A stretch of DNA of 64,000 nt from assembly GCA_022703585.1 (NCBI GenBank), contig JAKLDJ010000003.1, forward strand, positions 14,250 through 78,249, read 5' to 3'. The notes below the pieces were generated by a model, which was not told where the DNA came from, ran no database searches, and worked only from the letters and a program-made list of their open reading frames with translations. A program made the translations under genes and the position numbers. Shown one piece after another: positions 26,559 to 47,046 of the stretch; the first letter of the stretch is position 1, and each line of letters begins with the position of its first letter. This stretch comes from Candidatus Omnitrophota bacterium. GTDB lineage: Bacteria; Omnitrophota; Gorgyraeia; Zapsychrales; JAKLDJ01.

Positions 26559-26601
26559 TTCTTTCTAACAAAAGATCGTAGAGATTAAAGAGAGGGCATC
26601 T

Positions 26602-30752: not shown

Positions 30753-30756
30753 CCTT

Positions 30757-31695
30757 ATGAATCATAATTCTGCCATTTTAGTCGTCGGCCATGACGACAT
30801 TATCGACAATTCGCTTTTTAATTATTTTAAGGCGCATAACTTTAAGAAGGTATATTCTTCATTCCGTGCGGGTTTGGATGTGCTTAATCAGGGGGCGGTG
30901 CGGTCTTTTTTAAAGTCTAAAAGAATCGATTATGTTTTTTTATCCTCGACGCGCTCAGGGGGTATTGCCGCGAATCAGAAGTACGCGGCTGAGTTTATTT
31001 ATAGCAATCTGGAAAGCCAAAATAACATTATCCACGCTTCCTATCAATCCAACGTCAAGAAACTGATGTATTTTGCCGGGTCGTGCGCTTATCCAAAAGA
31101 AACGCCCCAGCCCATTAAAGAAAAATATTTGTTAACCGGCCCCTTGGAGAGTACCAGCGAGCCGTATTCTGTCGCCAAGATTGCCGGCATAAAGCTGTGT
31201 CAGGCTTATAAAAGGCAATACGGCTTTAACACTGTTGTCGCTGTTCCTTCGACAATTTACGGCCCCGGAAGCGATGTCGATATTACCACCGCCCACGTGA
31301 TCGGGGCTTTGATCGGAAAGTTTCACGAGGCTAAATCCCGCAATAAAAACGAGGTTGTTGTTTGGGGCAGCGGAAAACCGCGCCGGGAATTTCTCTATGC
31401 GGATGATTTTGTCGATGCCTGTCTGTTTTTGATGAATACGTATGAAGATGCCGAAATGATTAATGTCGGCTGCGGTTTTGACGTGTCGATTAAAGAGTTG
31501 GCGGAGATGATTGCGGAAGTATCGGGATTTAAGGGGAAAATCGTTTTTGACCGGACGAAACCCGACGGCACCATGCGTAAGCTCATGGACAATAGCCGCA
31601 TCAAGCGCCTGGGCTGGAGGCCGAAGATTGGCTTAAAGGAAGGGATTAAGAAAACATACGATTGGTACGCACAGACAAAGGAGTCCAAGAGATGA
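30757..31695 (+). CDS. GDP-L-fucose synthase-like NAD(P)-dependent epimerase/reductase (Fcl/WcaG family; possibly a GDP-6-deoxyheptose reductase)
   Basis: Fcl-like segments LVVGHDD..., YPKETPQPIKEKYLLTGPLESTSEPYSVAKIAG and KLCQAYKRQYGFN. The long upstream frame from 30649 is rejected. Confidence 0.75.
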   Translation: MNHNSAILVVGHDDIIDNSLFNYFKAHNFKKVYSSFRAGLDVLNQGAVRSFLKSKRIDYVFLSSTRSGGIAANQKYAAEFIYSNLESQNNIIHASYQSNVKKLMYFAGSCAYPKETPQPIKEKYLLTGPLESTSEPYSVAKIAGIKLCQAYKRQYGFNTVVAVPSTIYGPGSDVDITTAHVIGALIGKFHEAKSRNKNEVVVWGSGKPRREFLYADDFVDACLFLMNTYEDAEMINVGCGFDVSIKELAEMIAEVSGFKGKIVFDRTKPDGTMRKLMDNSRIKRLGWRPKIGLKEGIKKTYDWYAQTKESKR

Positions 31696-32624
31696 AGATT
31701 TTAGTGACGGGCGGCGCCGGCTATATCGGCTCGGTTTTGGTTCCTGCTCTTTTAAAAAAAGGGCACAAGGCTGTTGTTCTCGATAATTTTATGTATAACC
31801 AAACCCCCTTGCTGGATTGCTGTTACGATAAAAACTTAGAAATCATCAGGGGGGATGTGCGTAATAAATCCCTGGTGACTAAACTCATTAAAGATGTGGA
31901 CGCCATTTTTCCTTTGGCGTGTCTAACCGGGGCGCCCTTATGCAACAAAGACCCTATTGCTGCCCAGACGGTTATTTACGATGCCGTTAAAATGATCCTG
32001 GATTTAAGAAGCAAAGAACAAATTGTTATTTTCCCGACGACCAACAGCGGTTACGGGGTAGGCCAAAAAGGAAAATTTTGTACGGAAAAAACCCCTTTAA
32101 AACCTATTTCGCTTTACGGCCAGTTAAAAGTCAAAGCAGAAAATGATATTTTGGATGCCGGCAATGCGATTACCTTAAGGCTGGCGACGGCCTTTGGGAT
32201 GAGCCCGCGCATGCGCTTGGATTTATTGGTTAATGATTTTACCTACAGGGCTGTCTATGACCGTTTTATCGTATTATTCGAAGCGCATTTTAAGAGGAAT
32301 TTTATCCATGTGCGTGATGTGGCCAAGGCCTTTATTCACTGCCTGGATAACTTTAGCAAGATGAAAAATGAGCCTTACAATGTAGGCTTAAGCGATGCCA
32401 ATTTAAGCAAGCAGGAGTTGTGCGAGGAAATCAAGAAACACGTGCCGGAGTTCTATTTTGTGGAGTCCGCTGTCGGTGAGGACCCGGACAAAAGGGACTA
32501 TATTGTCAGCAATGAAAAAATAGAGAAAGCCGGTTTTCGTCCTGACGTCTCCATATCGGATGGTATCAGGGAGCTGGTAAAAGGGTATCAGATTATCAAG
32601 AGAAATCAATTTGCCAACGTTTAG
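31692..32624 (+). CDS. NAD-dependent epimerase/dehydratase family protein
   Basis: MKILVTGGAGYIGSVLV Rossmann motif and YGQLK (YxxxK). Confidence 0.75.
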   Translation: MKILVTGGAGYIGSVLVPALLKKGHKAVVLDNFMYNQTPLLDCCYDKNLEIIRGDVRNKSLVTKLIKDVDAIFPLACLTGAPLCNKDPIAAQTVIYDAVKMILDLRSKEQIVIFPTTNSGYGVGQKGKFCTEKTPLKPISLYGQLKVKAENDILDAGNAITLRLATAFGMSPRMRLDLLVNDFTYRAVYDRFIVLFEAHFKRNFIHVRDVAKAFIHCLDNFSKMKNEPYNVGLSDANLSKQELCEEIKKHVPEFYFVESAVGEDPDKRDYIVSNEKIEKAGFRPDVSISDGIRELVKGYQIIKRNQFANV

Positions 32625-32696: not shown

Positions 32697-34208
32697 ATGT
32701 CTAAGAATGTCGATGTTGTTTTGATTAAAACCAACAGCCAGAAGAGGATTTATCAGGACTTAAGCGAAGATTTTACAGGGATAGAACCTCCTCTGTGGCT
32801 TGCACTTACAGCAGCAACCTTGCGGGGGCAAGGGTTTTCGGTTATGGCTATTGATGCCGAAGCCGAAGATTTGAATATCAAAGAGACTATTCAGAAAACC
32901 CTCGAACACAAACCCCTCCTGGTGGCGATTGTTGTTTCCGGAACCAATCCTTCGGCGTCAACCATGAATATGATAGGCGCCAGCGAGGTATTGGGCCAGT
33001 TTAAGGAAGCATCCCCCGGCACCCCGATAGTCCTTTCCGGGCTTCACCCTTCGGCGTTGCCGGAACGGACCATGAGAGAAGAAAGTACGGATTTTGTCAT
33101 CGAGGGTGAGGGTTTTTTGACCTATGCCGAATTGTTGAAGGCCCTTAAGGGTGGGAAAAAACTTGGGGAAGATTTTCAGATTAAAGGATTATGGTATAAG
33201 AAGAATGGAAAAATTATTTCTAATCCCCGTGCTCCTAATGTTGCCGATTTAGGAACGCTGCCGATGCCGGCATGGGACCTTCTTCCCATGGTGCGGTATC
33301 GTGCCCACAACTGGCATTGTTTCCAGAGTATTGACGAGCGCGAACCTTACGGCGTAATTTATACCAGCTTGGGGTGCCCTTTTAGCTGCAGTTTCTGCTG
33401 CATCAATGTTACGTTCGGAGGCTCCGGTATCCGCTACCGTCCGCCGCAAAAGGTTGCCGAAGAAATCGATTTTCTCGCCAAGAATTACGGGGTCAAGAAT
33501 ATAAAGATCTTAGACGAAATCTTTGTGCTTAAACCCGCTCATGTCATTGAGCTTTGCGACCGCATTATTGCCTTGGGTCATAATCTGAATTTCTGGGTTT
33601 ACGGAAGAATCGATACGGTCAGAGAAGACCTGCTGAAGAAAATGAAAGAGGCAGGGATGAATTGGATTGCCTACGGTATCGAATCCGGCAGTAAAAAAGT
33701 GCGCGACGGTGTTTCCAAGGGGCGGTTTGACCAGGAGACGATAAAAAGAGTGGTTAAAACAACCCATAGCGTCGGCATGCACATCGTAGCCAATTTTATT
33801 TTTGGCCTTCCGGACGATGATGAAGAGACGATGCAGGAGACATTGGACCTGGCCAAAGAGCTTAACTGCGAATACAGCAATTTCTATTGCGCGATGGCTT
33901 ATCCGGGATCGCAATTATATAAAGACGCGATTGCCCAGGGGGTACCGCTGCCCAAGACATGGGCGGGGTATTCGCAGTTTAGCGAAGAGACATTTCCGCT
34001 TCCTACCAAGCATATATCCGGTGCCCAGGTACTGCGTTTCCGGGATAAGGCATTCGATAATTATTACAGCGATCCCAAATATCTGGATATGATGATGGAA
34101 AAATTCGGTTCCAGGACGGTGGAGCATATTAAGAAAATGTGTTCGGTTAAATTGCGCCGGAAATATGCCGGAGAGGATAAAGAGGTCCATTCTAACAGGT
34201 TATCTTAA
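32697..34208 (+). CDS. B12-binding domain radical SAM enzyme (class B radical SAM methyltransferase-like)
   Basis: N-terminal cobalamin-binding Rossmann region and radical SAM CxxxCxxC motif (GCPFSCSFCC). Confidence 0.8.
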   Translation: MSKNVDVVLIKTNSQKRIYQDLSEDFTGIEPPLWLALTAATLRGQGFSVMAIDAEAEDLNIKETIQKTLEHKPLLVAIVVSGTNPSASTMNMIGASEVLGQFKEASPGTPIVLSGLHPSALPERTMREESTDFVIEGEGFLTYAELLKALKGGKKLGEDFQIKGLWYKKNGKIISNPRAPNVADLGTLPMPAWDLLPMVRYRAHNWHCFQSIDEREPYGVIYTSLGCPFSCSFCCINVTFGGSGIRYRPPQKVAEEIDFLAKNYGVKNIKILDEIFVLKPAHVIELCDRIIALGHNLNFWVYGRIDTVREDLLKKMKEAGMNWIAYGIESGSKKVRDGVSKGRFDQETIKRVVKTTHSVGMHIVANFIFGLPDDDEETMQETLDLAKELNCEYSNFYCAMAYPGSQLYKDAIAQGVPLPKTWAGYSQFSEETFPLPTKHISGAQVLRFRDKAFDNYYSDPKYLDMMMEKFGSRTVEHIKKMCSVKLRRKYAGEDKEVHSNRLS

Positions 34209-34217
34209 GAGGTTTCT

Positions 34218-35222
34218 ATGATTATCAGCCGTACGCCTTTTCGTGTTTCGTTTTTTGGTGGAGGGACTGACTATCCGGGGTGGTTTAACGGAAATAAGGG
34301 AGCGGTTTTAGCCACCACCATCGATAAATACTGCTATATCACCTGCCGTTATCTTCCGCCGTTTTTTGAACATAAATCGCGGATTATCTATTCAAGGATG
34401 GAACATGTCCAGGTCAGCGTTGATGAAATCCAGCATCCGGCGGTGCGCGAGGTGTTGAAATTTCTTAATATTCACGAGGGAATCGAGATTCATCACGACG
34501 GCGATCTTCCGGCACGCACGGGGTTGGGGTCAAGCTCTTCTTTTACGGTGGGACTTTTGAATGCCCTCTATGCGCTTAAAGGTATCATGGTCACCAAAGA
34601 ACGCCTGGCGCAAGAAGCGATTCTTATCGAGCAGGAAAAGTGTCAAGAAAATGTCGGATGCCAGGATCAAACCCTTGCCGCCTATGGGGGATTTAATTGC
34701 ATAGAATTCGGAGGCAGCGAACATTTGCAGGTCAGAAAGGTTACGCTTCCACGCGAGAGGTTGAATGCATTGCAGGACCACCTGATGATGTTTTTCACCG
34801 GTTTCTCTCGTACGGCCTCCGAGATTGCCGCCCATCAAGTTCAAAATATTCCTAACAAGACAAAAGAATTAACCGAAATGTACCAAATGGTTACAAAGGC
34901 TGTCGATATTTTAAACAGCAATGACGACTTGGACCGATTTGGAAAACTGCTTCACGAGAGCTGGAAGCTAAAACGAAGCCTTTCGAACAAGGTGAGTACT
35001 TCCCACATCGATGAATTATATAATGCCGCACTCCAGGCCGGGGCACAGGGCGGGAAGCTGCTGGGGGCGGGGGGCGGCGGTTTTCTTTTGCTTTTTGTCC
35101 ACCCGGATAAGCAAAAGAAGGTAAGGGAACAGTTTAAAAATCTTCTTTCAATACCTTTTCGGTTTGAGAACTTAGGTACCCAGATTATTTTTTACCAGCC
35201 CGGTACCGGAAAAGTCGTCTAA
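34218..35222 (+). CDS. GHMP family sugar kinase (HddA-like D-glycero-D-manno-heptose 7-phosphate kinase candidate)
   Basis: GHMP motif GLGSSSSFTVGLLNAL; N-terminus MIISRTPFRVSFFGGGTD. Confidence 0.7.
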   Translation: MIISRTPFRVSFFGGGTDYPGWFNGNKGAVLATTIDKYCYITCRYLPPFFEHKSRIIYSRMEHVQVSVDEIQHPAVREVLKFLNIHEGIEIHHDGDLPARTGLGSSSSFTVGLLNALYALKGIMVTKERLAQEAILIEQEKCQENVGCQDQTLAAYGGFNCIEFGGSEHLQVRKVTLPRERLNALQDHLMMFFTGFSRTASEIAAHQVQNIPNKTKELTEMYQMVTKAVDILNSNDDLDRFGKLLHESWKLKRSLSNKVSTSHIDELYNAALQAGAQGGKLLGAGGGGFLLLFVHPDKQKKVREQFKNLLSIPFRFENLGTQIIFYQPGTGKVV

Positions 35223-35238
35223 GCCGTGTCTAGCGCCT

Positions 35239-35946
35239 ATGTTAAGAGATAGGGATGTTTTTATTTTATGCGGAGGCCTGGGGACTCGGCTGCGCGCGGA
35301 AATCAGCGACCGGCCCAAGGTCCTGGCCGAAATTGACGGCCAGCCTTTTTTGGGGATTCTGCTGGATTATTTAGCCGGTCAGGGGTTTACCCGGTTCATT
35401 CTGGGGACGGGCTATAAATCTGAGCAGATTGAATCATTCTGCCGGGATAAAAAATCAAATCTCTCCGTCATTTTTTCAAGGGAAGATGAGCCTCTTGGTA
35501 CCGGCGGTGCCATCAAATATGCCAAGGCGCTGATTAATAGCGATGTTTTCTTTGCCCTCAACGGCGATTGTTTTTGTCCGATTGATTTTGCCCAGATGCT
35601 CAAATCTCACGTCCGGCATGAAGCCTGTGCCACTTTGGCCGTCTCCGACGTTTCGGAAAAACAGGATTTTGGCGCTATCCTGCTGGGGCCGGCCGATAAA
35701 ATTCTGAATTTCTCGGAAAAATCAACAGATCCGTCGGCAAAATATGTCAGTGCCGGCATCTATTGTTTTAATAAGGATATTTTTAAATTTATGCCGGCCA
35801 AGAAGAATTTCTCGATTGAGACGGAATTCTTTCCCGATATGGTCGGAAAAGATTTTTACGGCTTTAAGGCAGGCCACGAATTTATCGATATCGGAACACC
35901 CGATAGGCTTAAAAGGGCTAAAGATTTTCTGATGAAAGGCAGGTAG
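35239..35946 (+). CDS. Sugar-1-phosphate nucleotidyltransferase (HddC-like heptose-1-phosphate guanylyltransferase candidate)
   Basis: FILCGGLGTRLRAEISDRPKVLAEI signature; adjacent to GHMP kinase. Confidence 0.7.
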   Translation: MLRDRDVFILCGGLGTRLRAEISDRPKVLAEIDGQPFLGILLDYLAGQGFTRFILGTGYKSEQIESFCRDKKSNLSVIFSREDEPLGTGGAIKYAKALINSDVFFALNGDCFCPIDFAQMLKSHVRHEACATLAVSDVSEKQDFGAILLGPADKILNFSEKSTDPSAKYVSAGIYCFNKDIFKFMPAKKNFSIETEFFPDMVGKDFYGFKAGHEFIDIGTPDRLKRAKDFLMKGR

Positions 35947-35949
35947 AAG

Positions 35950-37152
35950 TTGTCTAAAAAGATGAAAGTCCCTTTTGGGGCAATGACCATTACGCCGCAT
36001 GCACGGGACCTTGTCAACAAGGCGCTCGATTCGACCCGGGTCTCGGGTGGGCAGTATGTCCATGAATTTGAAGATCGTTTTGCCAAGTTGGTGGGTGTGC
36101 GCCATGCGGTTGCTTTAAGTAGCGGCACGGATGCAGATATATTAGCTATGGCGGTATTGTACGACTTTGGCGCTCATCGTGGCGACGAAATTATTGTCCC
36201 CGCCTTGTCGTTTGTGGCGACGGGCAATGCGGTCTTGCACGCTGGATTCAAACCGGTATTTGTTGATATTAAAAGAGAAACGCTGAATATCGATCCTGAA
36301 AAAATTGAAGCGGCTATTACCAAAAAGACACGCGCCATCATGCCGGTGCATTTAATGGGAAAACCGGCGCCGATGGAGGCGATCAATGCGATCGCTAAAA
36401 AGCATAAGTTATTTGTTATTGAAGATGCGGCCGAAGCCCACGGCGCTGTTTATAAAGGCAAGAATGTAGGGCTATGGTCGGATATGGCAGCCTACAGCAC
36501 CTATGTCGCCCATATTATAACCACCATTGAAGGCGGTATTGTCACCACCAACCGCGAAGATTTTGCCGAAATCTTACGTTCGCTGCGGGCTCACGGGCGC
36601 GCCTGCAAATGTGATGTCTGCGTGGTTAATACGAATTCCGGTTATTGCGCCAAGCGATTCAAATACGGCAAGGACATACGGTTTGTTTTTGAGCGTGTGG
36701 GTTATTCGGCCAAGATGAACGAGCTGGAGGCGGCGATCGGACTGGGAAGCCTAACGCTTTATCATAAGATTATCGAAAAAAGGCGGCATAACCTGCTGAC
36801 GATGATTGAGCGGCTTAAGGAATTTGATCAGTATCTGACAACCATTGAAGAAGAAAAAGACGAGAGAATTGGGCCGCATGCGTTTCCTATTGTTGTCAAA
36901 GAAGGGGCGCCTTTTACGCGTGATGAGTTTGTTAGCTTTCTAGAGAAGAATGGCATTGATTCACGAGACCTGTTTTCTTCCATGCCTACCCAGTGTCCGG
37001 GATTTTCTTTCTTGGGCTATAAGCTGGGGGACTTTCCCAATGCCGAATTTATGGGCACCCAGGGCCTGCATATCGGCGTGCACCAGGATATCAATGACGA
37101 ACATATTGATTATGTCATGGATACCATCCGCGCATTCCTAAAATCTCAATGA
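35950..37152 (+). CDS. DegT/DnrJ/EryC1/StrS family PLP-dependent sugar aminotransferase (TTG start; alternative ATG 35962)
   Basis: DegT-like fold; ALSSGTDADILAMAVL and catalytic Lys region. Confidence 0.8.
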   Translation: MSKKMKVPFGAMTITPHARDLVNKALDSTRVSGGQYVHEFEDRFAKLVGVRHAVALSSGTDADILAMAVLYDFGAHRGDEIIVPALSFVATGNAVLHAGFKPVFVDIKRETLNIDPEKIEAAITKKTRAIMPVHLMGKPAPMEAINAIAKKHKLFVIEDAAEAHGAVYKGKNVGLWSDMAAYSTYVAHIITTIEGGIVTTNREDFAEILRSLRAHGRACKCDVCVVNTNSGYCAKRFKYGKDIRFVFERVGYSAKMNELEAAIGLGSLTLYHKIIEKRRHNLLTMIERLKEFDQYLTTIEEEKDERIGPHAFPIVVKEGAPFTRDEFVSFLEKNGIDSRDLFSSMPTQCPGFSFLGYKLGDFPNAEFMGTQGLHIGVHQDINDEHIDYVMDTIRAFLKSQ

Positions 37153-37167
37153 GGACGGTGTATCCTT

Positions 37168-38280
37168 ATGCGCATTGCTATTAACTGCCGTTCTTTTTTA
37201 AAGCAGCATTATGCAGGCATCGGCCGTTATGGCTACAATCTTGTCAAGAATTTAGCCGCAATAGACCGCGAAAATCAGTATCTTCTTTATGTCAAGAAAA
37301 GACTTTTTGACTCTCGGCGGGTCACGCCGCATTTTGACGCCGGGAATTTCTCTGTTAAAAGAGATTTCTTTAACCGCGGCCTCGCCAGGACGCTGGGTGC
37401 GGTTGACATCTACCATTCGCTTAGCCCTGATTTTTTAGACATTGATTGCGAAAGAATTATTGTCACTATTCACGACCTGATCTATAAGGCTTATCCGCAA
37501 GGGCACACACAGGAAACGCTGGATTTAAGCGAGCGCTATTTTCAGGATATTCTTCAAAAAGCCAAGAAAATCATATGCCCTTCGCAGCATACGCTCGATG
37601 ATTTTCTTAAATATTTTCCGGTGGACCGTAATAAGGTGTGCCGAATTTATTCGGGGGTCGACAAAAACGAATTCTATCCTCTTGAGCCCCAGGAACGTGT
37701 CATTGCCGAGAAGGTTATTGCCGCCAAAGGGATCAAGGAGCCGTTCATTCTTTTTGTAGGGACTATTGAGCCACGAAAGAATCTTAAGAATTTAGTGCAC
37801 GCGTATATTCAGCTAAGGAAAAGAAAACAATTTTACGGAAAATTAGTTGTTGTCGGCATGAAAGGCTGGATGAACGATGAAGCTTCTGATCTGATCGAGC
37901 AGGGCGGCTTTAAAAATGATATTATCCTTTTGGGATATTTGACGAATCAGGAGCTATGCTATTGCTACAATCTTGCCGAAGTTTTTGTGTTTCCTTCGTT
38001 TTATGAGGGGTTTGGTTTTCCTATTTTGGAAGCGTTTAGCTGCGGGGCGGCGGTGGTTACCTCCAATCGTTCCTCCTGCGGAGAGATTGCCGGTAACGGT
38101 GCCGCCATTATTAATCCCGATGATCCGGCGATGATAGCGGATATGGTAGCACGTATGATCAATGATAAGCATTTTAAAGAGGACTTCAGGCAAAAGGGTT
38201 TAAAACGCGCCGAAGAATTTTCATTTTTAAAAACCGCCCGGGAAACGCTTCGCGTGTATGAAGAGATTTACCGTAGTTAA
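37168..38280 (+). CDS. Glycosyltransferase family 4 (GT-B)
   Basis: C-terminal EGFGFPILEAFSCGAAVVTS motif. Confidence 0.8.
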   Translation: MRIAINCRSFLKQHYAGIGRYGYNLVKNLAAIDRENQYLLYVKKRLFDSRRVTPHFDAGNFSVKRDFFNRGLARTLGAVDIYHSLSPDFLDIDCERIIVTIHDLIYKAYPQGHTQETLDLSERYFQDILQKAKKIICPSQHTLDDFLKYFPVDRNKVCRIYSGVDKNEFYPLEPQERVIAEKVIAAKGIKEPFILFVGTIEPRKNLKNLVHAYIQLRKRKQFYGKLVVVGMKGWMNDEASDLIEQGGFKNDIILLGYLTNQELCYCYNLAEVFVFPSFYEGFGFPILEAFSCGAAVVTSNRSSCGEIAGNGAAIINPDDPAMIADMVARMINDKHFKEDFRQKGLKRAEEFSFLKTARETLRVYEEIYRS

Positions 38281-38292
38281 GGATTTGGACCG

Positions 38293-39138
38293 ATGAAAGT
38301 CAGCGGATTTACCATTGTACGTAATGCCGTCAAATACAACTATCCGGTTGTTGAGTCTATAAAATCTATTTTACCGATTTGCGATGAATTTATCGTTAAT
38401 GTCGGCGACAGTGAAGACGAGACGCTTTCTCTAATCCGGTCTTTAAACAGCCCCAAAGTCCGCATGATCCAAAGGCGATGGGATATGAGCCGCCGGCCTG
38501 AAGTTTTATCGATAGAAACGAATCAGGCGCTTAAAGAATGCAAAGGCGACTGGGCTTTTTATCTGCAGTCCGATGAAATGATTCATGAAGATGATTTGCC
38601 GAAGCTAAAAAAATGCATGACGCGTTATTGGCAGGATGCCAGCGTCGATGCCCTGCGCTTTAGATGGCTTCACTTTTACGGGAGTTTTTGGCGTTACCGT
38701 ATCGATGCCGGCTGGTATCAAAAGCAGGACCGGATTATCCGCAATAACGGCAAGATCGAGTCCTGCGGCGATGCTTTTTCTTTTCGCCGTGTGGATGGCA
38801 AGCCCTTACGCTCGAAGGCGTCGGGGTGTTTTTTGTATCATTACGGCTGGGTTCAGCCCGGCGAGGTCATGCGCCAGCGGCGGCGTAATGCTGAAAGTAT
38901 CGGGTTTGTCAAGCTGGACGCGCAAGAAAAAGAGGAGAGTTATTCTTTCGGAGATTTAAACCGGTTTCCGGCGTATTTTGGCAGTCACCCCAAGGTTATG
39001 AAGGAATATATCGCCGGGCATGCGTTAAGCAGCGAAGACGAGAAAACGATTAACAGGAAATATTGGTTTCATCCGGCTAAAATTCTTAAGTTGAGATTCA
39101 AGACATCAAAACGGATTAAAGAAAAGATTTCCGATTAA
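38293..39138 (+). CDS. Hypothetical protein, possible GT-A-like glycosyltransferase (Glyco_tranf_2_4-like N-terminus)
   Basis: FTIVRNAVKYNYPVVESIKSILPICDEFIVNVGDSED resembles GT2_4 family starts. Weak call. Confidence 0.35.
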   Translation: MKVSGFTIVRNAVKYNYPVVESIKSILPICDEFIVNVGDSEDETLSLIRSLNSPKVRMIQRRWDMSRRPEVLSIETNQALKECKGDWAFYLQSDEMIHEDDLPKLKKCMTRYWQDASVDALRFRWLHFYGSFWRYRIDAGWYQKQDRIIRNNGKIESCGDAFSFRRVDGKPLRSKASGCFLYHYGWVQPGEVMRQRRRNAESIGFVKLDAQEKEESYSFGDLNRFPAYFGSHPKVMKEYIAGHALSSEDEKTINRKYWFHPAKILKLRFKTSKRIKEKISD

Positions 39139-39162
39139 AGCCCCGAAGGGGCAACGAGCGCT

Positions 39163-39885
39163 ATGAAATCAAACGTCTTAAAAAAACGGACTGAAAAATT
39201 CCGCGGCTTCTTGAATCTTTTGTATTCAGGGGCTTTTTTGCGCTTTACCAGGCTTAATCGGAATCGCTTATTACGCCAGACTCGAACGCTGGGAATTGAC
39301 CGGCTTCATATCGGTTGCGGCAATATTTTGCTTGAAGGCTGGCTGAATATTACTTACGAGATGCGCGAGAAATACGGGGAAATCAAAGAAAGAAACGGCC
39401 GGTGGTGGCTTAATTACGATGTCCGCAAACAATTGCCTTTTGATGATAACACGATCCAATACATCGCCGGGAGCCATTTTATCGAACATCTGGATTTAAA
39501 CGAAGGCATGGATTTCTTTAAGGAAGCCTTTCGGGTTATGAAAAAAGGCGGCGTTATCCGGGTGAGCTGCCCTGACTTGGAGATTTATGCGCGTCATTAT
39601 GTTTCCGGAAATAAGGAATTCTTTGAGAATCCCTTTATCCGCCAGGCCTGCACGTTTAAGAATGCCGTAACAAACGGAGAAATTTTTGCCGCGAAGGCAT
39701 ACGATAGCGGCGGGGCCCACAAATGGTTTTATGATTTTAATTCATTGAAGCATGTTCTGGAGTTGGCCGGATTTCATCAGGTAAAAAAAGTCGGCCGCCT
39801 GCAAGGGCAGGTCCCCGACGTGCAAAGAATCGAACCGGCCGAGCGGGAGATTGAAACATCTTACGCCGAGGCCGTCAAGCCCTAG
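39163..39885 (+). CDS. Class I SAM-dependent methyltransferase
   Basis: Methyltransferase fold motifs (HIGCGN..., MKKGGVIRVSCPDLE). Confidence 0.65.
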   Translation: MKSNVLKKRTEKFRGFLNLLYSGAFLRFTRLNRNRLLRQTRTLGIDRLHIGCGNILLEGWLNITYEMREKYGEIKERNGRWWLNYDVRKQLPFDDNTIQYIAGSHFIEHLDLNEGMDFFKEAFRVMKKGGVIRVSCPDLEIYARHYVSGNKEFFENPFIRQACTFKNAVTNGEIFAAKAYDSGGAHKWFYDFNSLKHVLELAGFHQVKKVGRLQGQVPDVQRIEPAEREIETSYAEAVKP

Positions 39886-39999
39886 GCTTTCTTTGAGGCT
39901 CGGGAGTTCAACAGAAGGAATGATCAAGGGCCGAGATGTTTTCGATCGATAGGTTTCCGAAACTCGGTGTTGCGCATTCGATAACAATAGGAGGGGGCA

Positions 40000-40821
40000 T
40001 TGATTGAAGCGTTCAGAAAATCATGGTGGATTGCTAAAAAGAGTGCCAATTTACTGATTGTCAGCATCCGGGTGTTTGTCTACTGCTTGATCCACCCCAA
40101 GAAGCTCTTTGAATTTACATTTTCTATTTTTTCAACCATAAACAAATTCTATCAATCTTCGCATGGCCGCCTGCTGGATTTCAAGACAACAAAAATATTT
40201 CAGGATCTTAATAAAAATCCTGTTTTTGCGCGTTGTAACTTTTTTCTAGCTGATTCGACAGTCACCCATCTCGCCGAGATACACATCTTAGCCACGTTGA
40301 CATGCTACCTGAAACCTAAAAGAATTTTTGAAATCGGGACTTACAACGGATTTACAACCCTGCATTTTGCCTACAACAGCCCGGGGGATTGCACGATTTA
40401 TACGTTAGATTTACCGCCGCATTACGATACCGAATATAAAAATAAGTCTTCTGAATATTCTTATGATGATTGGTTGGTCGTGCAGCTTAGCATGGACCAT
40501 ATTGCCAAAAGAATATTCAAGGGGGATCCTAATGCCGCAAAAATAAAAGAGCTTTTTGGGGATTCGGCAACTTTTGATTTCTCGCCATATTACGGGAAGA
40601 TCGACCTGATCTTTATTGACGGTAGCCATTCCTATCCGTACATTAAATCAGATACAGAAAATGCATTTAAAATGCTCTCGGATACCGGCATTATTGTCTG
40701 GCATGATTTTGATTATGTGATCCATAAGGATGTTTTTCGATATTTAAATGAGCTGTCAAAGGAGCGTAAGATTTATTCGATAGCGAATACGCGATTTGCC
40801 GTTTTCGGAAACTCTCTGTAG
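40000..40821 (+). CDS. Class I SAM-dependent methyltransferase (O-methyltransferase family 3/TylF-like)
   Basis: RIFEIGTYNGFTTLHFA and IDLIFIDGSHSYPYIKSDTENAFKMLSDTGIIVWHD motifs. Confidence 0.7.
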   Translation: MIEAFRKSWWIAKKSANLLIVSIRVFVYCLIHPKKLFEFTFSIFSTINKFYQSSHGRLLDFKTTKIFQDLNKNPVFARCNFFLADSTVTHLAEIHILATLTCYLKPKRIFEIGTYNGFTTLHFAYNSPGDCTIYTLDLPPHYDTEYKNKSSEYSYDDWLVVQLSMDHIAKRIFKGDPNAAKIKELFGDSATFDFSPYYGKIDLIFIDGSHSYPYIKSDTENAFKMLSDTGIIVWHDFDYVIHKDVFRYLNELSKERKIYSIANTRFAVFGNSL

Positions 40822-40836
40822 AAATTATCCTGCGCC

Positions 40837-42591
40837 ATGATCAAAAAAATACTGATGAGTTGGAACAATTTCTTTTCGTCTTTATCCAATAAGCCGAGCC
40901 TGTGGGATGCGTTTGTTCTGTCTTTCTTCGTTATTCTTGTCACCTGGCATCCTTTTTATTTGCATGGCCGGATTAACATCTTTGAGAATGGGCTGTATTT
41001 GCCCGGCATTGATGCGATTTTGCGCGGCCAAGTCCCCTACAGGGACTTTTTTTATTTACGCGGGCCTTTTGAGATATATGTTCCGGCGGGGTTGATGGCG
41101 ATTTTTGGGACACATCTGGGAGTCCTCTCAACCTATTTCTATGTCGGTACGGTTTTAACCCTGATCCTTTGCGTCTTTTTGGCAAAGGAACTTTATGCGA
41201 CGCGCTTGTTCCTTTATGTGGCAGTTCCTGTCTTGGCGGCCAGGACGTTTCCCCGGGTTGTTTTTACATATTGGGGCGGGATGCGGTTTGTTCTCGGATT
41301 ATTGGCCGTATGGTGCGCGGTTAAATTCTTTAAAAGCCAAAAGCTCCGGTGGCTGTTCTTCGCCGGATGCGTTACTTCCTGCGCCCTATTGACGAGTGTT
41401 GATATCGGTGTTTGTGCGGCTGCCGGGGTTATGGCAGCACTGTTACTTTCGCTCATATTCCGGCCTCGAGAGCAGCGCTCGGCTCTTAAGCCGCTTGCCA
41501 TATTTATATTGGGCATATTGTTCGTTGCGATTCCTTGCGGTGTTTATTTGATTGCGGCGGGGTCATTTTTTAACTATGTCGATACAACCCTTACGGTTGT
41601 TTCGGGTATTCCGAAAATCTTAAATCCTGAACTCCTGCCGGTTGCACCTCGCAATTTTACTGAAGTGTTTTGGGCGATGGTCAACCCGTCCAATAAGAAT
41701 TTTCGGCATATGACGCCGGTGTATTTTTATTTACTGATAATCATTTATATGATTTTTCAGATAAAAAACCGTAAGCTAACCTCAAAAAGCTTAATCATTG
41801 CTTGTCTTGCTGTTTACGGAATAGTTCTTTATAAGTCTTCGTTTTATGCCATTTGGGGGTCTAAGTTCGAAATGGCGCTCCAACCGGAGAAGATTTTATT
41901 GTTTTTTATCTTCGAGAGAATCTATTTTCTCTTAAAGGAAAGAAAGCAGGTGGCTGTCCCCGGATCCGCCTTTTTAAAGGCGCCGCAGGCAGATGCCGGC
42001 CGCCTGAGAACGCGCCTGGTTAATACCGCTCTCGTTTTTTTTATTATCTTTTCTTTGGGGTATTCCATAAACCATTACACAAAGCGGTTTTTTGTTTTTA
42101 GGTGGATTAAAAATGTTCTGTCGCATAAAGATACTTCCGGCCTGCTGCCTTTTAAGAAAGATGATGCCCGGCCGTTACGAATCGAACGCGCCAAAGGGAT
42201 TATCGTTCCTGTTTTGCAGGCGGATGAATTGGAGGCAGTGGTTGATTTTATTCAAAAGAATACAGGGAACAGTGAAGTTGTCTTTATGTACCAGGAATTA
42301 GGGGCGTACAGTTTCTTTGTTGATCGGCCTTTCTTAGGGCGGTTTCCCGGCGCCGATTTTTCCTGGTATAAGGAAAAATGGCACAAGGAGTTTATCGCAG
42401 ATTTTAAGCGCGTAAAACCAAAATATATTGTGATATCCCGCGAAATACCTTTAAGCTGGAAGGAGATCTTTTTTACTCTTTCGGAGAATAAAAAGAAGTT
42501 TGACGAAGTCATGGATATCATCAAATCGGATTATGCATTGGTGCATACGACACCCCTGTCCTATATTTACGAAATACGAAAGCCACGATGA
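40837..42591 (+). CDS. Large polytopic membrane protein with C-terminal soluble domain (candidate glycan polymerase or GT-C transferase)
   Basis: About 12 hydrophobic helices in the first 400 aa, then a hydrophilic tail. No recognisable catalytic motif. Confidence 0.4.
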   Translation: MIKKILMSWNNFFSSLSNKPSLWDAFVLSFFVILVTWHPFYLHGRINIFENGLYLPGIDAILRGQVPYRDFFYLRGPFEIYVPAGLMAIFGTHLGVLSTYFYVGTVLTLILCVFLAKELYATRLFLYVAVPVLAARTFPRVVFTYWGGMRFVLGLLAVWCAVKFFKSQKLRWLFFAGCVTSCALLTSVDIGVCAAAGVMAALLLSLIFRPREQRSALKPLAIFILGILFVAIPCGVYLIAAGSFFNYVDTTLTVVSGIPKILNPELLPVAPRNFTEVFWAMVNPSNKNFRHMTPVYFYLLIIIYMIFQIKNRKLTSKSLIIACLAVYGIVLYKSSFYAIWGSKFEMALQPEKILLFFIFERIYFLLKERKQVAVPGSAFLKAPQADAGRLRTRLVNTALVFFIIFSLGYSINHYTKRFFVFRWIKNVLSHKDTSGLLPFKKDDARPLRIERAKGIIVPVLQADELEAVVDFIQKNTGNSEVVFMYQELGAYSFFVDRPFLGRFPGADFSWYKEKWHKEFIADFKRVKPKYIVISREIPLSWKEIFFTLSENKKKFDEVMDIIKSDYALVHTTPLSYIYEIRKPR

Positions 42592-44024
42592 AAATTTCCC
42601 TGATATTCCCATGCTGGACACATGTCTTTGAATCGCTGTCAGAGGTAGCCAATAGTGCTTCAACCTTTCCGCCGCTCAATTTGGCCTACTTGGCTGCTAT
42701 CGCCGAAGAAAACGGGCATACGGTGCAGTTGATTGACGGCGAGGCGGAGCATCTGACCGTTGCTGAAGTGACGGCGCGGGTCAAAGAATTTTCTCCGGAT
42801 CTGATCGGCATGACCGCCACCACTCCGCTTTTTCACAATGTCGTAGCCCAGGCCGAGGCCCTGAAGGCGGCGCTGAGTGTTCCCATTATTGTTGGAGGGC
42901 CGCATGTTACTTATTTTAAAGAGAAGGTTTTCCGTGATCTGTTTGATTATTTTGTCATCGGACAGTGCGAGGGAACCTTTGCTTCTTTTCTGGAGGCGTT
43001 TGCGTCGAAGCAAGATATTTCAAGAATTCCCGGAATTTTATACAGGAAGAATGGGGGAATCCTATTTACGGGAGAAAATCCGCAAATTGTGAATCTTGAT
43101 GAAGTCCCGGTTCCCGCGCGCTGGCTTCTGAAAAAAGATTTATACCAGTTGGGGACATTGCGCGGCAAGAAAGTATATACGTCCATCATGACGTCGCGCG
43201 GATGCCCGTTTAAATGCGTTTTTTGCAGCACATCAATTTACGGAAAACACATCCGCAGAAGATCAATCGATAATACCATTAGCGAAATGAGGCACATTAC
43301 GGATGAGCTGGGTATCGGTCATTTGTTTGTCCTTGACGAGACGATGACCCTTGACCGCAAGTACATGCTGGCTCTCTGCGACGCCATCAAAAAGAATAAT
43401 ATAAAAATGACATGGGAATGCGGCACACGGGCAAACTTAATCGACGAAGAACTGATCGCCCGAATGGTGGAAAGCGGCTTAATCAGGATTTCTTTTGGGC
43501 TCGAGAGCGCTGATTTAAGAGTCCGCGATATTATTAAGAAAGAAGTACCGCTGGAAAGTTACGAAGCCGCGAATAAAATAACAAACAAATACGGGGTGGA
43601 AACCATTAACTCCGTGATGCTGGGTTTACCCGGCGATACACATGAGAGCATAGAAAAAACAATCACTTTTGTGCGTGATTCGCGCGTCATAGAACATGCA
43701 ACGTTTGGCATTGCGATACCCTATCCCGGTTCGGAGATGTATGATATGGCAGTGCGAGGGGATCATGGGCTTAAACTTGAGACGCAGGATTTTTCCCGGT
43801 ACCAGCGTTACGGTTCGGCAGTCATGAGCGTCAACGGTATTTCTCCCCAGGAATTGATAAGCCTTCAGAAAAAGGGTTTGATGCGGATCTACTTTGTTCC
43901 CTGGCGCATTATCCCGGTTATTAAAAGGTTTGGTGTCAGGCGCTTGATGAAACCTTTTTTTACTTCTCTGTGGTCGATTATTCGCGAAAAATTATCGTTG
44001 CCGTCTCGACAGAAGAAGTCATAA
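42588..44024 (+). CDS. B12-binding domain radical SAM enzyme (second copy)
   Basis: Radical SAM motif SRGCPFKCVFC. N-terminal B12-binding-like Rossmann region. Confidence 0.8.
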   Translation: MKISLIFPCWTHVFESLSEVANSASTFPPLNLAYLAAIAEENGHTVQLIDGEAEHLTVAEVTARVKEFSPDLIGMTATTPLFHNVVAQAEALKAALSVPIIVGGPHVTYFKEKVFRDLFDYFVIGQCEGTFASFLEAFASKQDISRIPGILYRKNGGILFTGENPQIVNLDEVPVPARWLLKKDLYQLGTLRGKKVYTSIMTSRGCPFKCVFCSTSIYGKHIRRRSIDNTISEMRHITDELGIGHLFVLDETMTLDRKYMLALCDAIKKNNIKMTWECGTRANLIDEELIARMVESGLIRISFGLESADLRVRDIIKKEVPLESYEAANKITNKYGVETINSVMLGLPGDTHESIEKTITFVRDSRVIEHATFGIAIPYPGSEMYDMAVRGDHGLKLETQDFSRYQRYGSAVMSVNGISPQELISLQKKGLMRIYFVPWRIIPVIKRFGVRRLMKPFFTSLWSIIREKLSLPSRQKKS

Positions 44025-44095: not shown

Positions 44096-45160
44096 ATGTT
44101 TAAGAAAATCTTGATTGTTAACATTTTTGGCATCGGCGACGTCCTTTTTACCACGCCGCTTGTCAGCAATATCAAAAGTAATTTTACCGATGTTTTTATC
44201 GGCTATGTCTGTAACGCCAGGGCGGCGGCGGTTTTGGCGGATAATCCCAAGATTGATAAGATTTTTATTTACGAGAGGGATGAATTTAACACGCTTTACA
44301 AGAAGTCAGGCATTCAGTTTCTAAAAAAGATGAATTCTCTTTTAAGCGCGATAAGAAACGAAGGTTTCGATGTAGGCTTAGATTTATCATTAAACGGTAA
44401 TGTCAGTTTTTTGATGGCGTTGGCCGGCATCAAACGCAGGATAGGGTTTAATTATAAAAACCGCAGTCTTTGGCTCACGGAAAAGGTTAATCTGGACGGC
44501 TATGCCCGAAAACATGTCGTGGAGTACTACCTGGAGCTGTTAGCGCGATTGGGTGTGCCGGCTGATCAGAACCGGATCGAACTGTTTTCTTCGCGGGATG
44601 ATTGCGCGTGGGCGGAACAATTTTTTTCTGATCATAAAATAAGCCCCAAAGATTTTCCCGTTTGTATTATTCCCGGGGGCGGGGCGAGCTGGGGAAAGGA
44701 CGCTGGCTACAAACGCTGGCCGGAGAAACAATTCGCACTTTTAGCCGATAAAATGGTTGAAAAATTTTCCGCAAAAGTTATACTGTTGGGAGATCAAAAC
44801 GAAAAAGAGCTCTGCCGGGCAGTGAAAGAAGCCATGAAGTCCGATTGCCTCGATATTGCCGGCGAAACGACGATTCCGCAGATGGCGGCGCTCCTGGCAA
44901 AATGCAAATTGGCGATTGCTAATGACGGCGGCCCTCTGCATGTGGCGGTTGCCGTGGGCACCAAGACAGTATCGATCTTCGGGCCGGTCGATGAATATGT
45001 CTACGGTCCGTATCCCAAAGATAATCATACGGTGATTCAAAAAGATATTGCCTGCCGGCCGTGTTACCGGCGTTTTCGTTTGGCGGATTGCCAGCACCAT
45101 CATTGTATTAATTCACTCGGCGTTCATGAAGTCTTTGAGAAAATAAAGGAGAGTCTATGA
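44096..45160 (+). CDS. Glycosyltransferase family 9 (ADP-heptose:LPS heptosyltransferase-like)
   Basis: N-terminal LIVNIFGIGDVLFTTPLVSNIK and C-terminal ANDGGPLHVAVAVGTKTVSIFGP, typical of GT9. Confidence 0.8.
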   Translation: MFKKILIVNIFGIGDVLFTTPLVSNIKSNFTDVFIGYVCNARAAAVLADNPKIDKIFIYERDEFNTLYKKSGIQFLKKMNSLLSAIRNEGFDVGLDLSLNGNVSFLMALAGIKRRIGFNYKNRSLWLTEKVNLDGYARKHVVEYYLELLARLGVPADQNRIELFSSRDDCAWAEQFFSDHKISPKDFPVCIIPGGGASWGKDAGYKRWPEKQFALLADKMVEKFSAKVILLGDQNEKELCRAVKEAMKSDCLDIAGETTIPQMAALLAKCKLAIANDGGPLHVAVAVGTKTVSIFGPVDEYVYGPYPKDNHTVIQKDIACRPCYRRFRLADCQHHHCINSLGVHEVFEKIKESL

Positions 45161-46269
45161 AGGTAACGTTTATCGATTTTACCAAACAAAATAAAGATAT
45201 CGAAAAGGAAGTTGAAAAGGGTTTTAAGCAGGTTATTAAAGATGCGAGTTTCATTTTAGGCAAAGACGTTGCCCGGTTCGAAAAAGAATTTTCCCAATAC
45301 TGCGGCGTCTCTTACGGCATCGGGGTTAATTCGGGGACGGACGCGTTGCACTTAGCGGTCAGGGCCCTGGATATCGGCCCCGGGGATGAGGTTATTTTAC
45401 CGTCGTTCACTTTTATTGCGACAGCCTTAGCGGTTTCGTATACGGGAGCCAAAACAGTTTTTGCGGATATTGCCGAGGATACCTACAATATTGATCCGCA
45501 AAAAATCGAAAAACTTATTACCAAGAAAACAAAAGCTATTATCGCGGTGCATCTCTACGGCCAGTCGGCGGATATGGAAGAAATACAAAAAATTGCCAAG
45601 AAATATAATCTAAAGATTATTGAAGATTCGGCCCAGGCCCACGGCGCTCTTTACCGGGGCAAGAAAATCGGTTCTTCCGGTGACGTTGCCTGTTTCAGCT
45701 TTTACCCGACCAAGGGGCTCGGTGCCTACGGAGACGGGGGGATGGTTATTACCCAGGACAAGTCGATTTACGAAAAAGTGCTTATGCTGCGCGATTACGG
45801 CCGTGTGGGGCGTTACAATCATGTCGTCAAAGGCTACAATTCGCGCCTGGATACTTTACAGGCTATTGTCTTATCCGCTAAATTAAAGCATTTGGATCAA
45901 TGGAATAAAATGCGCACCGAAGTTGCTGCCCGCTATTGCCGGATTCTTAGCGGTATCGAGGGCATCAAGGCGCCGACCATAAAGAATGACCGGACACACA
46001 CCTTCCAAACATTTGCCATTCGCGTCAAAGGCAAAAGAGATAAGGTCTGTGAGGGTTTAAAAGCGAAAGGCGTGACCTCGCTGATTCATTACCCGATTCC
46101 TTTACATCTTCAGGAAGCGTATAAGGAGTTGGGTCATAAGAAAGGTGATTTTCCTGTTTCGGAAATGGTGGCAGGCGAAATCCTTTCTCTGCCGATGTTT
46201 CCGCATATGCGTAAGAATCAAGTCGAATATGTCTGTAGCTCAATTAAGGACCTGATGAAAAATGGCTAA
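45157..46269 (+). CDS. DegT/DnrJ/EryC1/StrS family PLP-dependent sugar aminotransferase (second copy)
   Basis: VILPSFTFIATALAVSYTGAKTVFADI and Lys motif region. Confidence 0.85.
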   Translation: MKVTFIDFTKQNKDIEKEVEKGFKQVIKDASFILGKDVARFEKEFSQYCGVSYGIGVNSGTDALHLAVRALDIGPGDEVILPSFTFIATALAVSYTGAKTVFADIAEDTYNIDPQKIEKLITKKTKAIIAVHLYGQSADMEEIQKIAKKYNLKIIEDSAQAHGALYRGKKIGSSGDVACFSFYPTKGLGAYGDGGMVITQDKSIYEKVLMLRDYGRVGRYNHVVKGYNSRLDTLQAIVLSAKLKHLDQWNKMRTEVAARYCRILSGIEGIKAPTIKNDRTHTFQTFAIRVKGKRDKVCEGLKAKGVTSLIHYPIPLHLQEAYKELGHKKGDFPVSEMVAGEILSLPMFPHMRKNQVEYVCSSIKDLMKNG

Positions 46270-47029: not shown

Positions 47030-47046
47030 GGGTTTTCGCGAAATTT

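Follow-up and report, generated by a model that had tools for sequence, protein, structure and literature searches.

Gene content of the locus

The stretch of DNA considered here, 64,000 nucleotides in length and referred to as the window, belongs to a Candidatus Omnitrophota bacterium (contig JAKLDJ010000003.1) and contains two genes for radical S-adenosylmethionine (SAM) enzymes with a B12-binding domain, named rSAM1 and rSAM2. The first (32697..34208, + strand) codes for a protein of 503 amino acids and the second (42588..44024, + strand) for one of 478 amino acids. Both are located within a single + strand glycan operon, which extends from about 20.8 to 48.8 kb, with LptD at its start and PriA just beyond its end. 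Besides LptD, the operon comprises nucleotide-sugar enzymes, several glycosyltransferases (GT), a GT9 heptosyltransferase and a GmhB-like phosphatase; its context is that of the cell envelope. No genes for cobalamin uptake or synthesis were found in the 64 kb window, a result that is uninformative for the whole genome; bacteriochlorophyll genes are also absent from the window, and no hopanoid genes are present at the locus. rSAM2 is 100% identical to a protein available at NCBI from a Candidatus Omnitrophota metagenome-assembled genome (MAG), and the closest relatives of rSAM1 are likewise found in Omnitrophota.

The preliminary description of this DNA, made from the sequence alone, had assigned to both open reading frames (ORFs) an N-terminal B12-binding domain and a CxxxCxxC radical SAM cluster, and profile searches agree with this assignment. 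In rSAM1, the Pfam profiles Radical_SAM (PF04055) and B12-binding (PF02310) score 71.8 bits (cut-off 29.5) and 58.3 bits (cut-off 32.1), respectively; in rSAM2 the corresponding values are 83.6 and 72.9 bits, against the same cut-offs. The motifs that had been quoted are present, GCPFSCSFCC in rSAM1 (C227/C231/C234) and RGCPFKCVFC in rSAM2 (C206/C210/C213), and the cluster cysteines are invariant among 34 homologues of the former and 35 of the latter; the residue found two positions past the third cysteine, Ile236 in rSAM1 and Thr215 in rSAM2, is uninformative. Both proteins are thus members of the radical SAM superfamily, as indicated by the motif and by Radical_SAM scores above the gathering value, and both display the class B architecture, in which a Rossmann-type B12-binding domain precedes the radical SAM core. 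Since they share only 27% identity, they represent two separate subfamilies.

A cobalamin-binding fold, whose absence from structure predictions had been proposed as an argument against a methyltransferase function, is instead predicted for both proteins. AlphaFold2 models built from the 34 and 35 homologues (mean predicted local distance difference test scores of 90.0 for rSAM1 and 91.7 for rSAM2) display an N-terminal Rossmann-type domain, with alternating beta/alpha elements at residues 7-151 in rSAM1 and 2-139 in rSAM2, followed by a TIM-barrel-like radical SAM core. Within each subfamily, no variation is seen in the loops that follow beta-1, beta-3 and beta-4 of the Rossmann domain; this conservation at the crest of the domain suggests a real cofactor site, putatively for cobalamin.

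The gene cassette around rSAM1

Immediately upstream of rSAM1 lies a gene for a short-chain dehydrogenase/reductase (SDR; 31662..32624, + strand), with a probable start at 31692 (MKILVTGG...). Its product shows about 62% identity over 308 residues to PDB 6VO6/6VO8 (411.8 bits), a close similarity that extends over the full length and makes it a GDP-heptose C4-dehydrogenase-like protein. The depositor molecule name of 6VO6 reads only "Putative sugar-nucleotide epimerase/dehydratease"; we take this structure to be Campylobacter jejuni Cj1427, the GDP-heptose C4-dehydrogenase. The gene preceding the SDR (30649..31695, + strand) encodes an epimerase-reductase resembling GDP-l-fucose synthase and ColC (Fcl-like); it scores 397.6 bits with the NCBIfam profile GDPFucSynFcl (cut-off 500), and its homology begins near residue 40. 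Its PDB matches are GDP-fucose synthases, including 7m13 and 7anc, which are presumably the C4-reductases of C. jejuni, and it also resembles colitose synthases.

Downstream of rSAM1, the preliminary description had recognized a GHMP kinase and a nucleotidyltransferase, both of which are confirmed by Pfam. The sugar-1-kinase (34218..35222, + strand) is HddA/WcbL-like, with 145.1 bits to NCBIfam HddA (NF049969), under the cut-off of 600, and matches to the WcbL structures 4usk/4usm at about 1e-39. The sugar-1-phosphate nucleotidyltransferase (35239..35946, + strand), possibly a guanylyltransferase, is HddC/ManC-like, with 145.9 bits to NCBIfam HddC (NF049965), under the cut-off of 300. HddA and HddC are the best-matching kinase and transferase types, but distant ones, so that the exact sugar phosphate is a putative assignment. 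The earlier guess of a heptose-type nucleotide sugar is much strengthened by these two genes, by the 62% identity of the SDR to 6VO6 and by the GmhA- and GmhB-like genes found in some of the related loci described below.

The next gene (35950..37152, + strand) encodes a DegT-family protein. Its sequence places it among the pyridoxamine/pyridoxal phosphate (PMP/PLP)-dependent sugar 3-dehydratases of ColD/E1 type, and not among the aminotransferases, because a His and not a Lys is present at the PLP position: the stretch YVAH aligns with YPTK of a Lys-type paralogue, and the replacement of the PLP lysine by His is the signature of ColD/E1 sugar 3-dehydratases. The best NCBIfam profile is RfbH (283 bits) and the PDB matches include E1 (3bcx) and ColD. 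The "sugar aminotransferases" that had been placed between the two radical SAM genes therefore reduce to this single His-type DegT protein; a true Lys-type aminotransferase does exist (45157-46269), but downstream of rSAM2. The series is followed by genes for GT4 and GT2 glycosyltransferases (37168..39138, + strand), recognized by Pfam and kept together with the cassette in Omnitrophota; the GT2 protein is 64-66% identical in loci L001-L003.

In the window, the cassette also comprises a pair of short genes for a thiamine diphosphate (ThDP)-dependent enzyme. The alpha-like subunit (29588..30214, + strand; 208 amino acids) matches Pfam E1_dh (8e-13) and TPP_enzyme_C and contains a ThDP-type motif, GD..(x)..DNG; the beta-like subunit (30216..30752, + strand; 178 amino acids), which would correspond to the PYR domain, scores 24 bits with Transket_pyr (E-value 3e-5), just under the cut-off of 27. 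They are 43% and 47% identical, respectively, to the same short form and to its partner gene in the archaeal locus L031. The possibility that they are remnants was ruled out, given the occurrence of the same short pair in L031 and the intact ThDP motif.

Distribution of the cassette

One genome per species was scanned for rSAM1, which yielded 80 loci whose rSAM1 relatives are 39-68% identical to the query, most of them by at least 44%. Among Bacteria, the loci are distributed over Omnitrophota, Nitrospira, Desulfobacterota, Elusimicrobiota, Planctomycetota (including Kuenenia), Cyanobacteria, Chloroflexota, Verrucomicrobiota and Bdellovibrionota, as well as many Alphaproteobacteria (Magnetospirillum, Azospirillum), a Coxiella-like endosymbiont and a Pelagibacteraceae single-cell genome; among Archaea, they were found in Methanoperedens and in a Nanoarchaeota MAG. 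Two plasmids, one from Azospirillum lipoferum 4B and one from Solidesulfovibrio magneticus RS-1, are annotated with the same gene set. The homologue searches returned thousands of related proteins each, mostly metagenomic.

Neighbors were counted within 10 kb, in loci that had been chosen for carrying rSAM1. Homologues of the SDR are present in 54 of the 80 loci (median identity 59%) and those of the GHMP kinase in 55 (57%); DegT-family proteins occur in 56 (about 30%), Fcl-like proteins in 45 (41%) and nucleotidyltransferases in 42 (35%). The His-type residue is found in 55 of 58 DegT ORFs adjoining rSAM1 orthologues. More than one B12-radical SAM paralogue is present in 18 of the 80 loci. 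Occasional neighbors are SIS (GmhA-like), HAD (GmhB-like) and NUDIX genes; the Methanoperedens locus combines the cassette with GmhA-like (SIS) and GmhB-like (HAD) genes and a split transketolase.

No other partner of rSAM1 is as constant as the ThDP enzyme, which the preliminary description had missed. Of the 39 loci having at least 8 kb on both sides of rSAM1, at least 33 contain it, and in two of the remaining six a ThDP enzyme was found by tblastn. As judged from clustering of neighboring ORFs and from scans of representatives, it occurs in three unrelated architectures: alpha/beta subunits of pyruvate dehydrogenase E1 (PDH-E1) type in 24-28 loci, a split transketolase in 17, and a form resembling acetohydroxyacid synthase (AHAS) and YerE in 7. 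A transketolase supplying sedoheptulose 7-phosphate was considered and ruled out as a general explanation, since PDH-E1-like and AHAS/YerE-like enzymes occupy the same slot.

A full-text search of the literature retrieved no paper on the cassette, nor on enzymes of the B12-radical SAM type encoded in loci for O-antigen, capsule or heptose; the cassette is widespread and uncharacterized.

Some individual loci deserve mention. A NUDIX hydrolase gene stands beside the kinase and rSAM1 in L004 and on the A. lipoferum (L168) and S. magneticus (L169) plasmids, and in 6 of the 80 loci according to clustering; its product might hydrolyze a nucleotide sugar ahead of re-activation. In the anammox genome of Candidatus Kuenenia hertensis (L071, about 8068-16497), the SDR, the Fcl-like gene, rSAM1, the kinase, the transferase and the His-type DegT gene are found together. 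The S-layer O-glycan of K. stuttgartiensis contains an unidentified residue of 174 Da (PMC5088730); by simple arithmetic, this mass is also compatible with a branched deoxy sugar, C8H14O4.

Orthologues of rSAM1 are retained in the 997 kb genome of the Coxiella-like endosymbiont (L036), where the SDR-rSAM1 pair is present in surroundings that look degraded, and in the SAR11-type Pelagibacteraceae single-cell genome (L069). Both lineages are believed to make little or no use of cobalamin; if this is so, the retention of these orthologues would mean that rSAM1 may not need cobalamin. The term "radical SAM" is absent from the literature that was found on Coxiella burnetii lipopolysaccharide (LPS).

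The contexts of rSAM2

Orthologues of rSAM2 (50-71% identity) are found in Omnitrophota, KSB1, Planctomycetota, Elusimicrobia and Nitrospirae; a scan of metagenomes for further orthologues returned mostly paralogues of 30-35% identity. In five of the seven rSAM2 contexts that were read, parts of the heptose cassette are present. In the KSB1 locus L171, the exact place held elsewhere by rSAM1, flanked by the SDR and kinase genes, is taken by a rSAM2-type gene (64% identity); in L005 and L170 such a gene comes after the cassette and stands beside a small GT2 gene and DUF6311 membrane proteins, and in L006 the cassette genes are located about 6.5 kb downstream of it. Both types occur together in L015 and L031. 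Class I methyltransferases often adjoin rSAM2 relatives, and in the Elusimicrobia locus L007 the B12-binding/Radical_SAM genes number eight or more, if the query and two genes cut off at the ends of the locus are included; they are interleaved with PMT_2-type membrane glycosyltransferases. As a single case, a gene of the URO-D family, which includes corrinoid methyltransferases, lies three genes downstream of the rSAM2-type gene of L171 (14032-15090).

Two class I SAM methyltransferases, correctly noted before and both O-methyltransferase-like, precede rSAM2 in the window: the first (39163-39885, + strand) matches Methyltransf_11 and the second (40000-40821, + strand) matches Methyltransf_24 and Methyltransf_3. 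Neither has homologues in the other loci compared or an NCBIfam match above cut-off. They are followed by a polytopic membrane protein of 584 amino acids (40837..42591, + strand), whose stop codon overlaps the rSAM2 start by 4 bases; it has at least six hydrophobic segments and a soluble C-terminal part of about 170 amino acids, with no Pfam or NCBIfam match. Identity with DUF6311 was ruled out by the lack of BLASTP similarity. This block of four genes (39163-44024) is a variable module, because the closest syntenic Omnitrophota relative has ManC at the same place (L001/L002, 16360-17424); rSAM1, by contrast, lies inside the cassette. Between 40 and 42 kb of the window the GC content falls to 0.428 and the AT skew is -0.17. 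Downstream of rSAM2, the genes at 44096..47622 (+ strand) code for the GT9 heptosyltransferase, the Lys-type DegT aminotransferase, a GT2 protein and the GmhB-like HAD phosphatase, and are syntenic in L001/L002.

The company of rSAM2 relatives raises the question of whether the substrate could be something other than a sugar, namely a lipid, a polyprenyl carrier or a protein encoded nearby: their neighbors code for large membrane proteins (DUF6311, PMT_2, LPG_synthase_TM) and for small GT2 proteins of the polyprenyl-phosphate type, and B12-radical SAM families that modify lipids do exist (matches to HpnR and ladderane-type profiles). Such a substrate is nevertheless very improbable, as rSAM1 is embedded among nucleotide-sugar genes across many distant lineages, including Archaea, and a rSAM2-type gene takes the same slot in L171.

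The predicted sugar pathway

The gene content described above makes it very likely that rSAM1 and rSAM2 both tailor a deoxy sugar derived from GDP-heptose in a conserved nucleotide-sugar pathway. In this pathway, the Cj1427-like SDR would oxidize C-4 of GDP-heptose and the His-type DegT enzyme would then remove the 3-hydroxyl group. These steps, predicted from sequence similarity as far as the 3-deoxy-4-keto heptose, have a biochemical precedent, since Cj1427 together with a C. jejuni 3-dehydratase converts GDP-heptose to GDP-d-glycero-4-keto-3-deoxy-heptose in vitro (PMC10680097). The ThDP enzyme may then extend the 3-deoxy-4-keto sugar by an acyl branch of two carbons, in the manner of YerE in the synthesis of yersiniose; the Fcl/ColC-like enzyme would reduce and/or epimerize the product, and the radical SAM step would be placed somewhere along this route. 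The branching reaction is proposed by analogy: YerE-type thiamine carboligases, the enzymes that build acyl-branched sugars, canonically act on a 3-deoxy-4-keto nucleotide sugar (PMC9306805), and the same branching role has been proposed for a PDH-like heterodimer, EvdU5/EvdS3, in everninomicin (PMC10338323). The radical SAM chemistry, too, can be approached only by analogy.

One may ask whether the radical SAM enzymes perform a simpler tailoring of this sugar, such as epimerization at an unactivated carbon (e.g. at C-6, from d-glycero to l-glycero), oxidation or decarboxylation. Radical SAM epimerases and dehydrogenases acting on sugars exist (NeoN, HygY, BtrN, DesII), but to our knowledge they lack a B12-type domain. 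No feature of the cassette points specifically to these reactions, which we regard as unlikely, even if the inversion at C-6 of GDP-heptoses in some C. jejuni serotypes is unexplained (PMC10680097) and would offer a role for such an enzyme.

Family placement and the radical SAM reaction

Neither rSAM1 nor rSAM2 reaches a curated NCBIfam cut-off. The top profile for both is HpnJ (TIGR03471), with 177.7 bits for rSAM1 and 169.9 for rSAM2 against a cut-off of 577.6; the alignment is near end to end, covering residues 32-470 and 25-447, respectively. BchE (TIGR02026) follows with 153.3 and 164.1 bits (cut-off 481.35). A P-methylase family, ApyD, AprD4 and various C-methylase families rank below these two; for the methylase profiles, the values for rSAM1 and rSAM2 are 128/133 bits (Sden_1168), 83/126 (PhpK), 61/111 (HpnR) and 89/96 (QCMT). 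Among solved structures, AprD4 (PDB 6fd2) ranks first with either protein, both in sequence comparisons (E-values of 9e-21 for rSAM1 and 2.4e-28 for rSAM2) and with Foldseek (TM-scores of 0.71-0.79); the cobalamin enzymes MgmA/QCMT, TsrM, CysS, OxsB and TokK come next. None of HpnJ, BchE and AprD4 methylates. Grouping with B12-radical SAM families that do not methylate had been named beforehand as an observation that would contradict C-methylation, and it is found in part: HpnJ and BchE are the top profiles and AprD4 the nearest structure, but all lie far under the cut-offs.

The similarity to AprD4 suggests a further option, in which the two proteins would be cobalamin-independent radical dehydratases that abstract a hydrogen next to a vicinal diol (e.g. 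C-6/C-7) and release water, giving a deoxy-keto sugar to be reduced by the SDR, as in the AprD4/AprD3 system. The substrate of AprD4 is a sugar, the SDR gene lies directly upstream of rSAM1 with strong co-conservation, and a Cj1427-type route leaves the C-6/C-7 diol intact (PMC10680097). However, the profile of the AprD4 family of diol dehydratases (NF033070) scores 102.8 bits for rSAM1 and 130.1 for rSAM2 against a cut-off of 500, below HpnJ and BchE, and the likeness is limited to the radical SAM core, the N-terminal domain of AprD4 contributing about 0 bits in profile alignments. The adjacent SDR is already accounted for as the C4-dehydrogenase, and the strong conservation of the Rossmann crest suggests a bound cofactor; AprD4 binds no cobalamin (PMC12931638). 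Dehydration is therefore improbable.

In the preliminary description both proteins were taken as class B radical SAM enzymes that seem to C-methylate the sugar; this reading was drawn from domain architecture only, and the claim is weakened by the HpnJ and BchE profiles, which lead every methylase model. In such a scheme, methylcobalamin would donate a methyl group to an unactivated carbon, located either in the sugar derived from heptose or in the acyl branch attached to it, and the class I enzymes would add O- or N-methyl groups. Cobalamin-dependent methyltransferases of this kind consume two SAM per turnover and are defined by no sequence motif. Several observations speak for this reading. 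The B12-binding domains exceed the Pfam cut-off and the Rossmann loops are invariant; when the profiles are aligned with TsrM, OxsB and CysS, which are bona fide cobalamin enzymes, the match enters the N-terminal domain in both families (TokK with the rSAM2 profile only), while the match to AprD4 does not and QCMT aligns significantly over the core only. Several paralogues per locus and the class I methyltransferases adjoining rSAM2 orthologues would also be consistent with methylation, which is the commonest known function of this architecture and has sugar precedents in GenK, GenD1, Fms7 and MoeK5 (PMC12931638). On the other side, besides the ranking of the profiles, rSAM1 is a core member of the cassette tied to the ThDP carboligase and not an optional decoration, and no cobalamin genes accompany it in the window, with the limit given above for the genome as a whole.

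The residue expected under the corrin ring also bears on this point. In radical methylases it is hydrophobic, Trp or Leu, and polar lower-axial residues are found in TsrM (Arg69) and in OxsB (Asn186, plus a water molecule) (PMC12931638). Ser81 is the rSAM1 residue to which both OxsB Asn186 and TsrM Arg69 align, and the counterpart of OxsB Asn186 in rSAM2 is Thr78, which is invariant. These small polar residues at the putative lower-axial position are a weak hint against radical methylation. On the whole, C-methylation is about as probable as the skeletal reaction favored below.

The reading that we narrowly favor, with a probability of roughly one in three, is a non-methylating radical reaction on the carbon skeleton, i.e. 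a ring closure or rearrangement, of a thiamine-branched 3-deoxyheptose. A 5'-deoxyadenosyl radical would take a hydrogen atom from the side chain of the heptose, leaving a sugar radical that would form or rearrange a C-C bond inside the sugar; for example, C-7 could attack the acetyl carbonyl and generate a five-membered carbocycle, as proposed for HpnJ. This skeletal reaction is preferred because the nearest profiles, HpnJ and BchE, are those of carbocycle-forming enzymes, because a polar residue is aligned with the lower-axial position, and because rSAM1 is coupled almost obligately to a carboligase. Furthermore, the alternation of rSAM1 and rSAM2 in one slot suggests a core step rather than a decoration.

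Several points weigh against a skeletal reaction. With no profile at its curated cut-off, homology assigns no reaction to either protein, and the lower-axial argument is based on hidden Markov model alignments and on few structures; the sequence of the reactions and the substrate to which the ThDP enzyme would add its branch are proposals only. The number of paralogues (18 of 80 loci with more than one, at least eight in L007, two in the window) fits several methylations more naturally than one ring closure, and class I methyltransferases often stand beside rSAM2 orthologues. We know of no glycan with such a sugar from any carrier of the cassette. Moreover, among the B12-domain radical SAM enzymes characterized so far, methylases form the majority (PMC12931638).

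A more specific version of the skeletal reaction takes the cassette as the route to carbocyclic sugars of the caryose type. GDP-heptose would be oxidized at C-4, deoxygenated at C-3 and provided with a thiamine-derived acetyl branch at C-4, after which the B12-domain radical SAM enzyme would close the C-7-C-8 bond in a redox-neutral radical cyclization. The branched product, 4-C-acetyl-3-deoxyheptose (C9H16O7), is isomeric with caryose (4,8-cyclo-3,9-dideoxynonose), a carbocyclic sugar of LPS for which the biosynthetic route is reported to be unknown (PMC9092360). Each feature of caryose would have a matching gene, i.e. the seven plus two carbons, the 3-deoxy position, the terminal methyl group, the quaternary C-4 and the five-membered carbocycle, but this fit was derived after the fact. 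No protein of the caryose producer Trinickia/Burkholderia caryophylli is among the best 120 of thousands of matches to a betaproteobacterial orthologue used as query, a result that is uninformative. The caryose route is speculative and rather unlikely; if true, uncultured bacteria and archaea would commonly carry carbocyclic C9 sugars in their envelopes.

The glycan loci of uncultured microbes very often contain B12-domain radical SAM genes, none of which has been assigned a reaction there. Two such subfamilies can now be tied to a substrate class, a GDP-heptose that would be oxidized at C-4 and deoxygenated at C-3, and to a thiamine-dependent carboligase, in a cassette present in at least 80 genomes from many bacterial lineages and from Archaea. 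Published C. jejuni enzymes already give access to the intermediates upstream of the radical SAM step. For glycans of the cell surface, both possible results would be a novelty, whether the reaction turns out to be a C-methylation dependent on cobalamin or a radical step that closes a ring or rearranges the skeleton and leads to a branched or carbocyclic C9 sugar; the latter, if true, could explain sugars such as caryose.

Other sugar genes in the window

Upstream of the cassette, the genes at 23103-29424 code for a UDP-glucose dehydrogenase, an RmlA-like transferase, a second nucleotide-sugar dehydrogenase, an SDR and an AsnB-type amidotransferase; the best profile of this SDR is dTDP-glucose 4,6-dehydratase, with UDP-xylose synthase/ArnA-type profiles weaker. 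This set suggests the presence of a uronic acid amide in the same glycan as the cassette sugar. A second group of sugar genes, for a CDP-3,6-dideoxyhexose, is found on the minus strand at 56655-61613: RfbF (335 bits) and RfbH (705 bits) are both above their cut-offs and are accompanied by a CDP-glucose 4,6-dehydratase-like gene, an SDR and a polyprenyl-phosphate GT2 resembling PgfS/ArnC.

At 10612-13185, a protein of 624 amino acids with no Pfam match is followed by a small AglJ/ArnC-like GT2, an arrangement that again seems to combine a large unassigned protein with a glycosyltransferase of the polyprenyl-phosphate type; the 624-residue protein has no similarity to the 584-residue membrane protein beside rSAM2. 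Finally, a protein of 668 amino acids with a C-terminal pretoxin HINT domain is encoded at 2609-4615, upstream of the heat-shock operon hrcA-grpE-dnaK-dnaJ.

Comparison with known systems

The class B methylases (TokK, CysS, QCMT/MgmA, GenK, Fom3, MoeK5) share with rSAM1 and rSAM2 the two-domain architecture and the fold. They differ in that identity is only 14-21%, the extra C-terminal domains of TokK and CysS are missing in rSAM1 and rSAM2, no methylase profile ranks at the top, and the Trp/Leu of the lower-axial position is replaced by small polar residues. AprD4, the radical SAM 1,2-diol dehydratase of apramycin biosynthesis, resembles the two proteins in acting on a sugar and in possessing a Rossmann-like N-terminal domain; this domain, however, has no sequence match to theirs, and the family profile scores far under its cut-off.

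HpnJ, the radical SAM enzyme for the hopanoid cyclitol ether, with PtmC and calditol synthase as relatives, combines a B12-type domain with a radical SAM core and acts on a sugar. Carbocycle formation by radical chemistry has been proposed for HpnJ, which was never reconstituted (PMC9092360). With scores so far under the cut-off, rSAM1 and rSAM2 are not orthologues of HpnJ, and their substrate would be a nucleotide-heptose derivative, in place of the lipid-linked glucosamine of HpnJ.

As for the pathway, the likeness to the capsular GDP-heptose route of C. jejuni is extensive, since its kinase, guanylyltransferase, C4-dehydrogenase, His-type 3-dehydratase and Fcl-like reductase all have counterparts in the cassette. 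No cupin C3/C5 epimerase was seen in the cassette. We know of no radical SAM or thiamine enzyme in the heptose clusters of C. jejuni. A further difference is that there the C4-dehydrogenase and the 3-dehydratase were brought together only in vitro, and radical chemistry is never mentioned in the review of that pathway (PMC10680097).

The routes to yersiniose-type branched sugars differ in the acceptor, which in the known examples is a CDP- or UDP-linked hexose or pentose, and they have no radical SAM partner; in the cassette the scaffold would be a GDP-heptose, on which branching is predicted. Conversely, the sequence of activities is similar: an E1/ColD-type 3-dehydratase is followed by a ThDP carboligase (YerE, ErwE or MMAR_2332) and then by an SDR reductase. 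Furthermore, the two kinds of branching enzyme represented by YerE and by EvdU5/EvdS3 have their parallels here, as YerE-like and PDH-E1-like forms both occur in the cassette.

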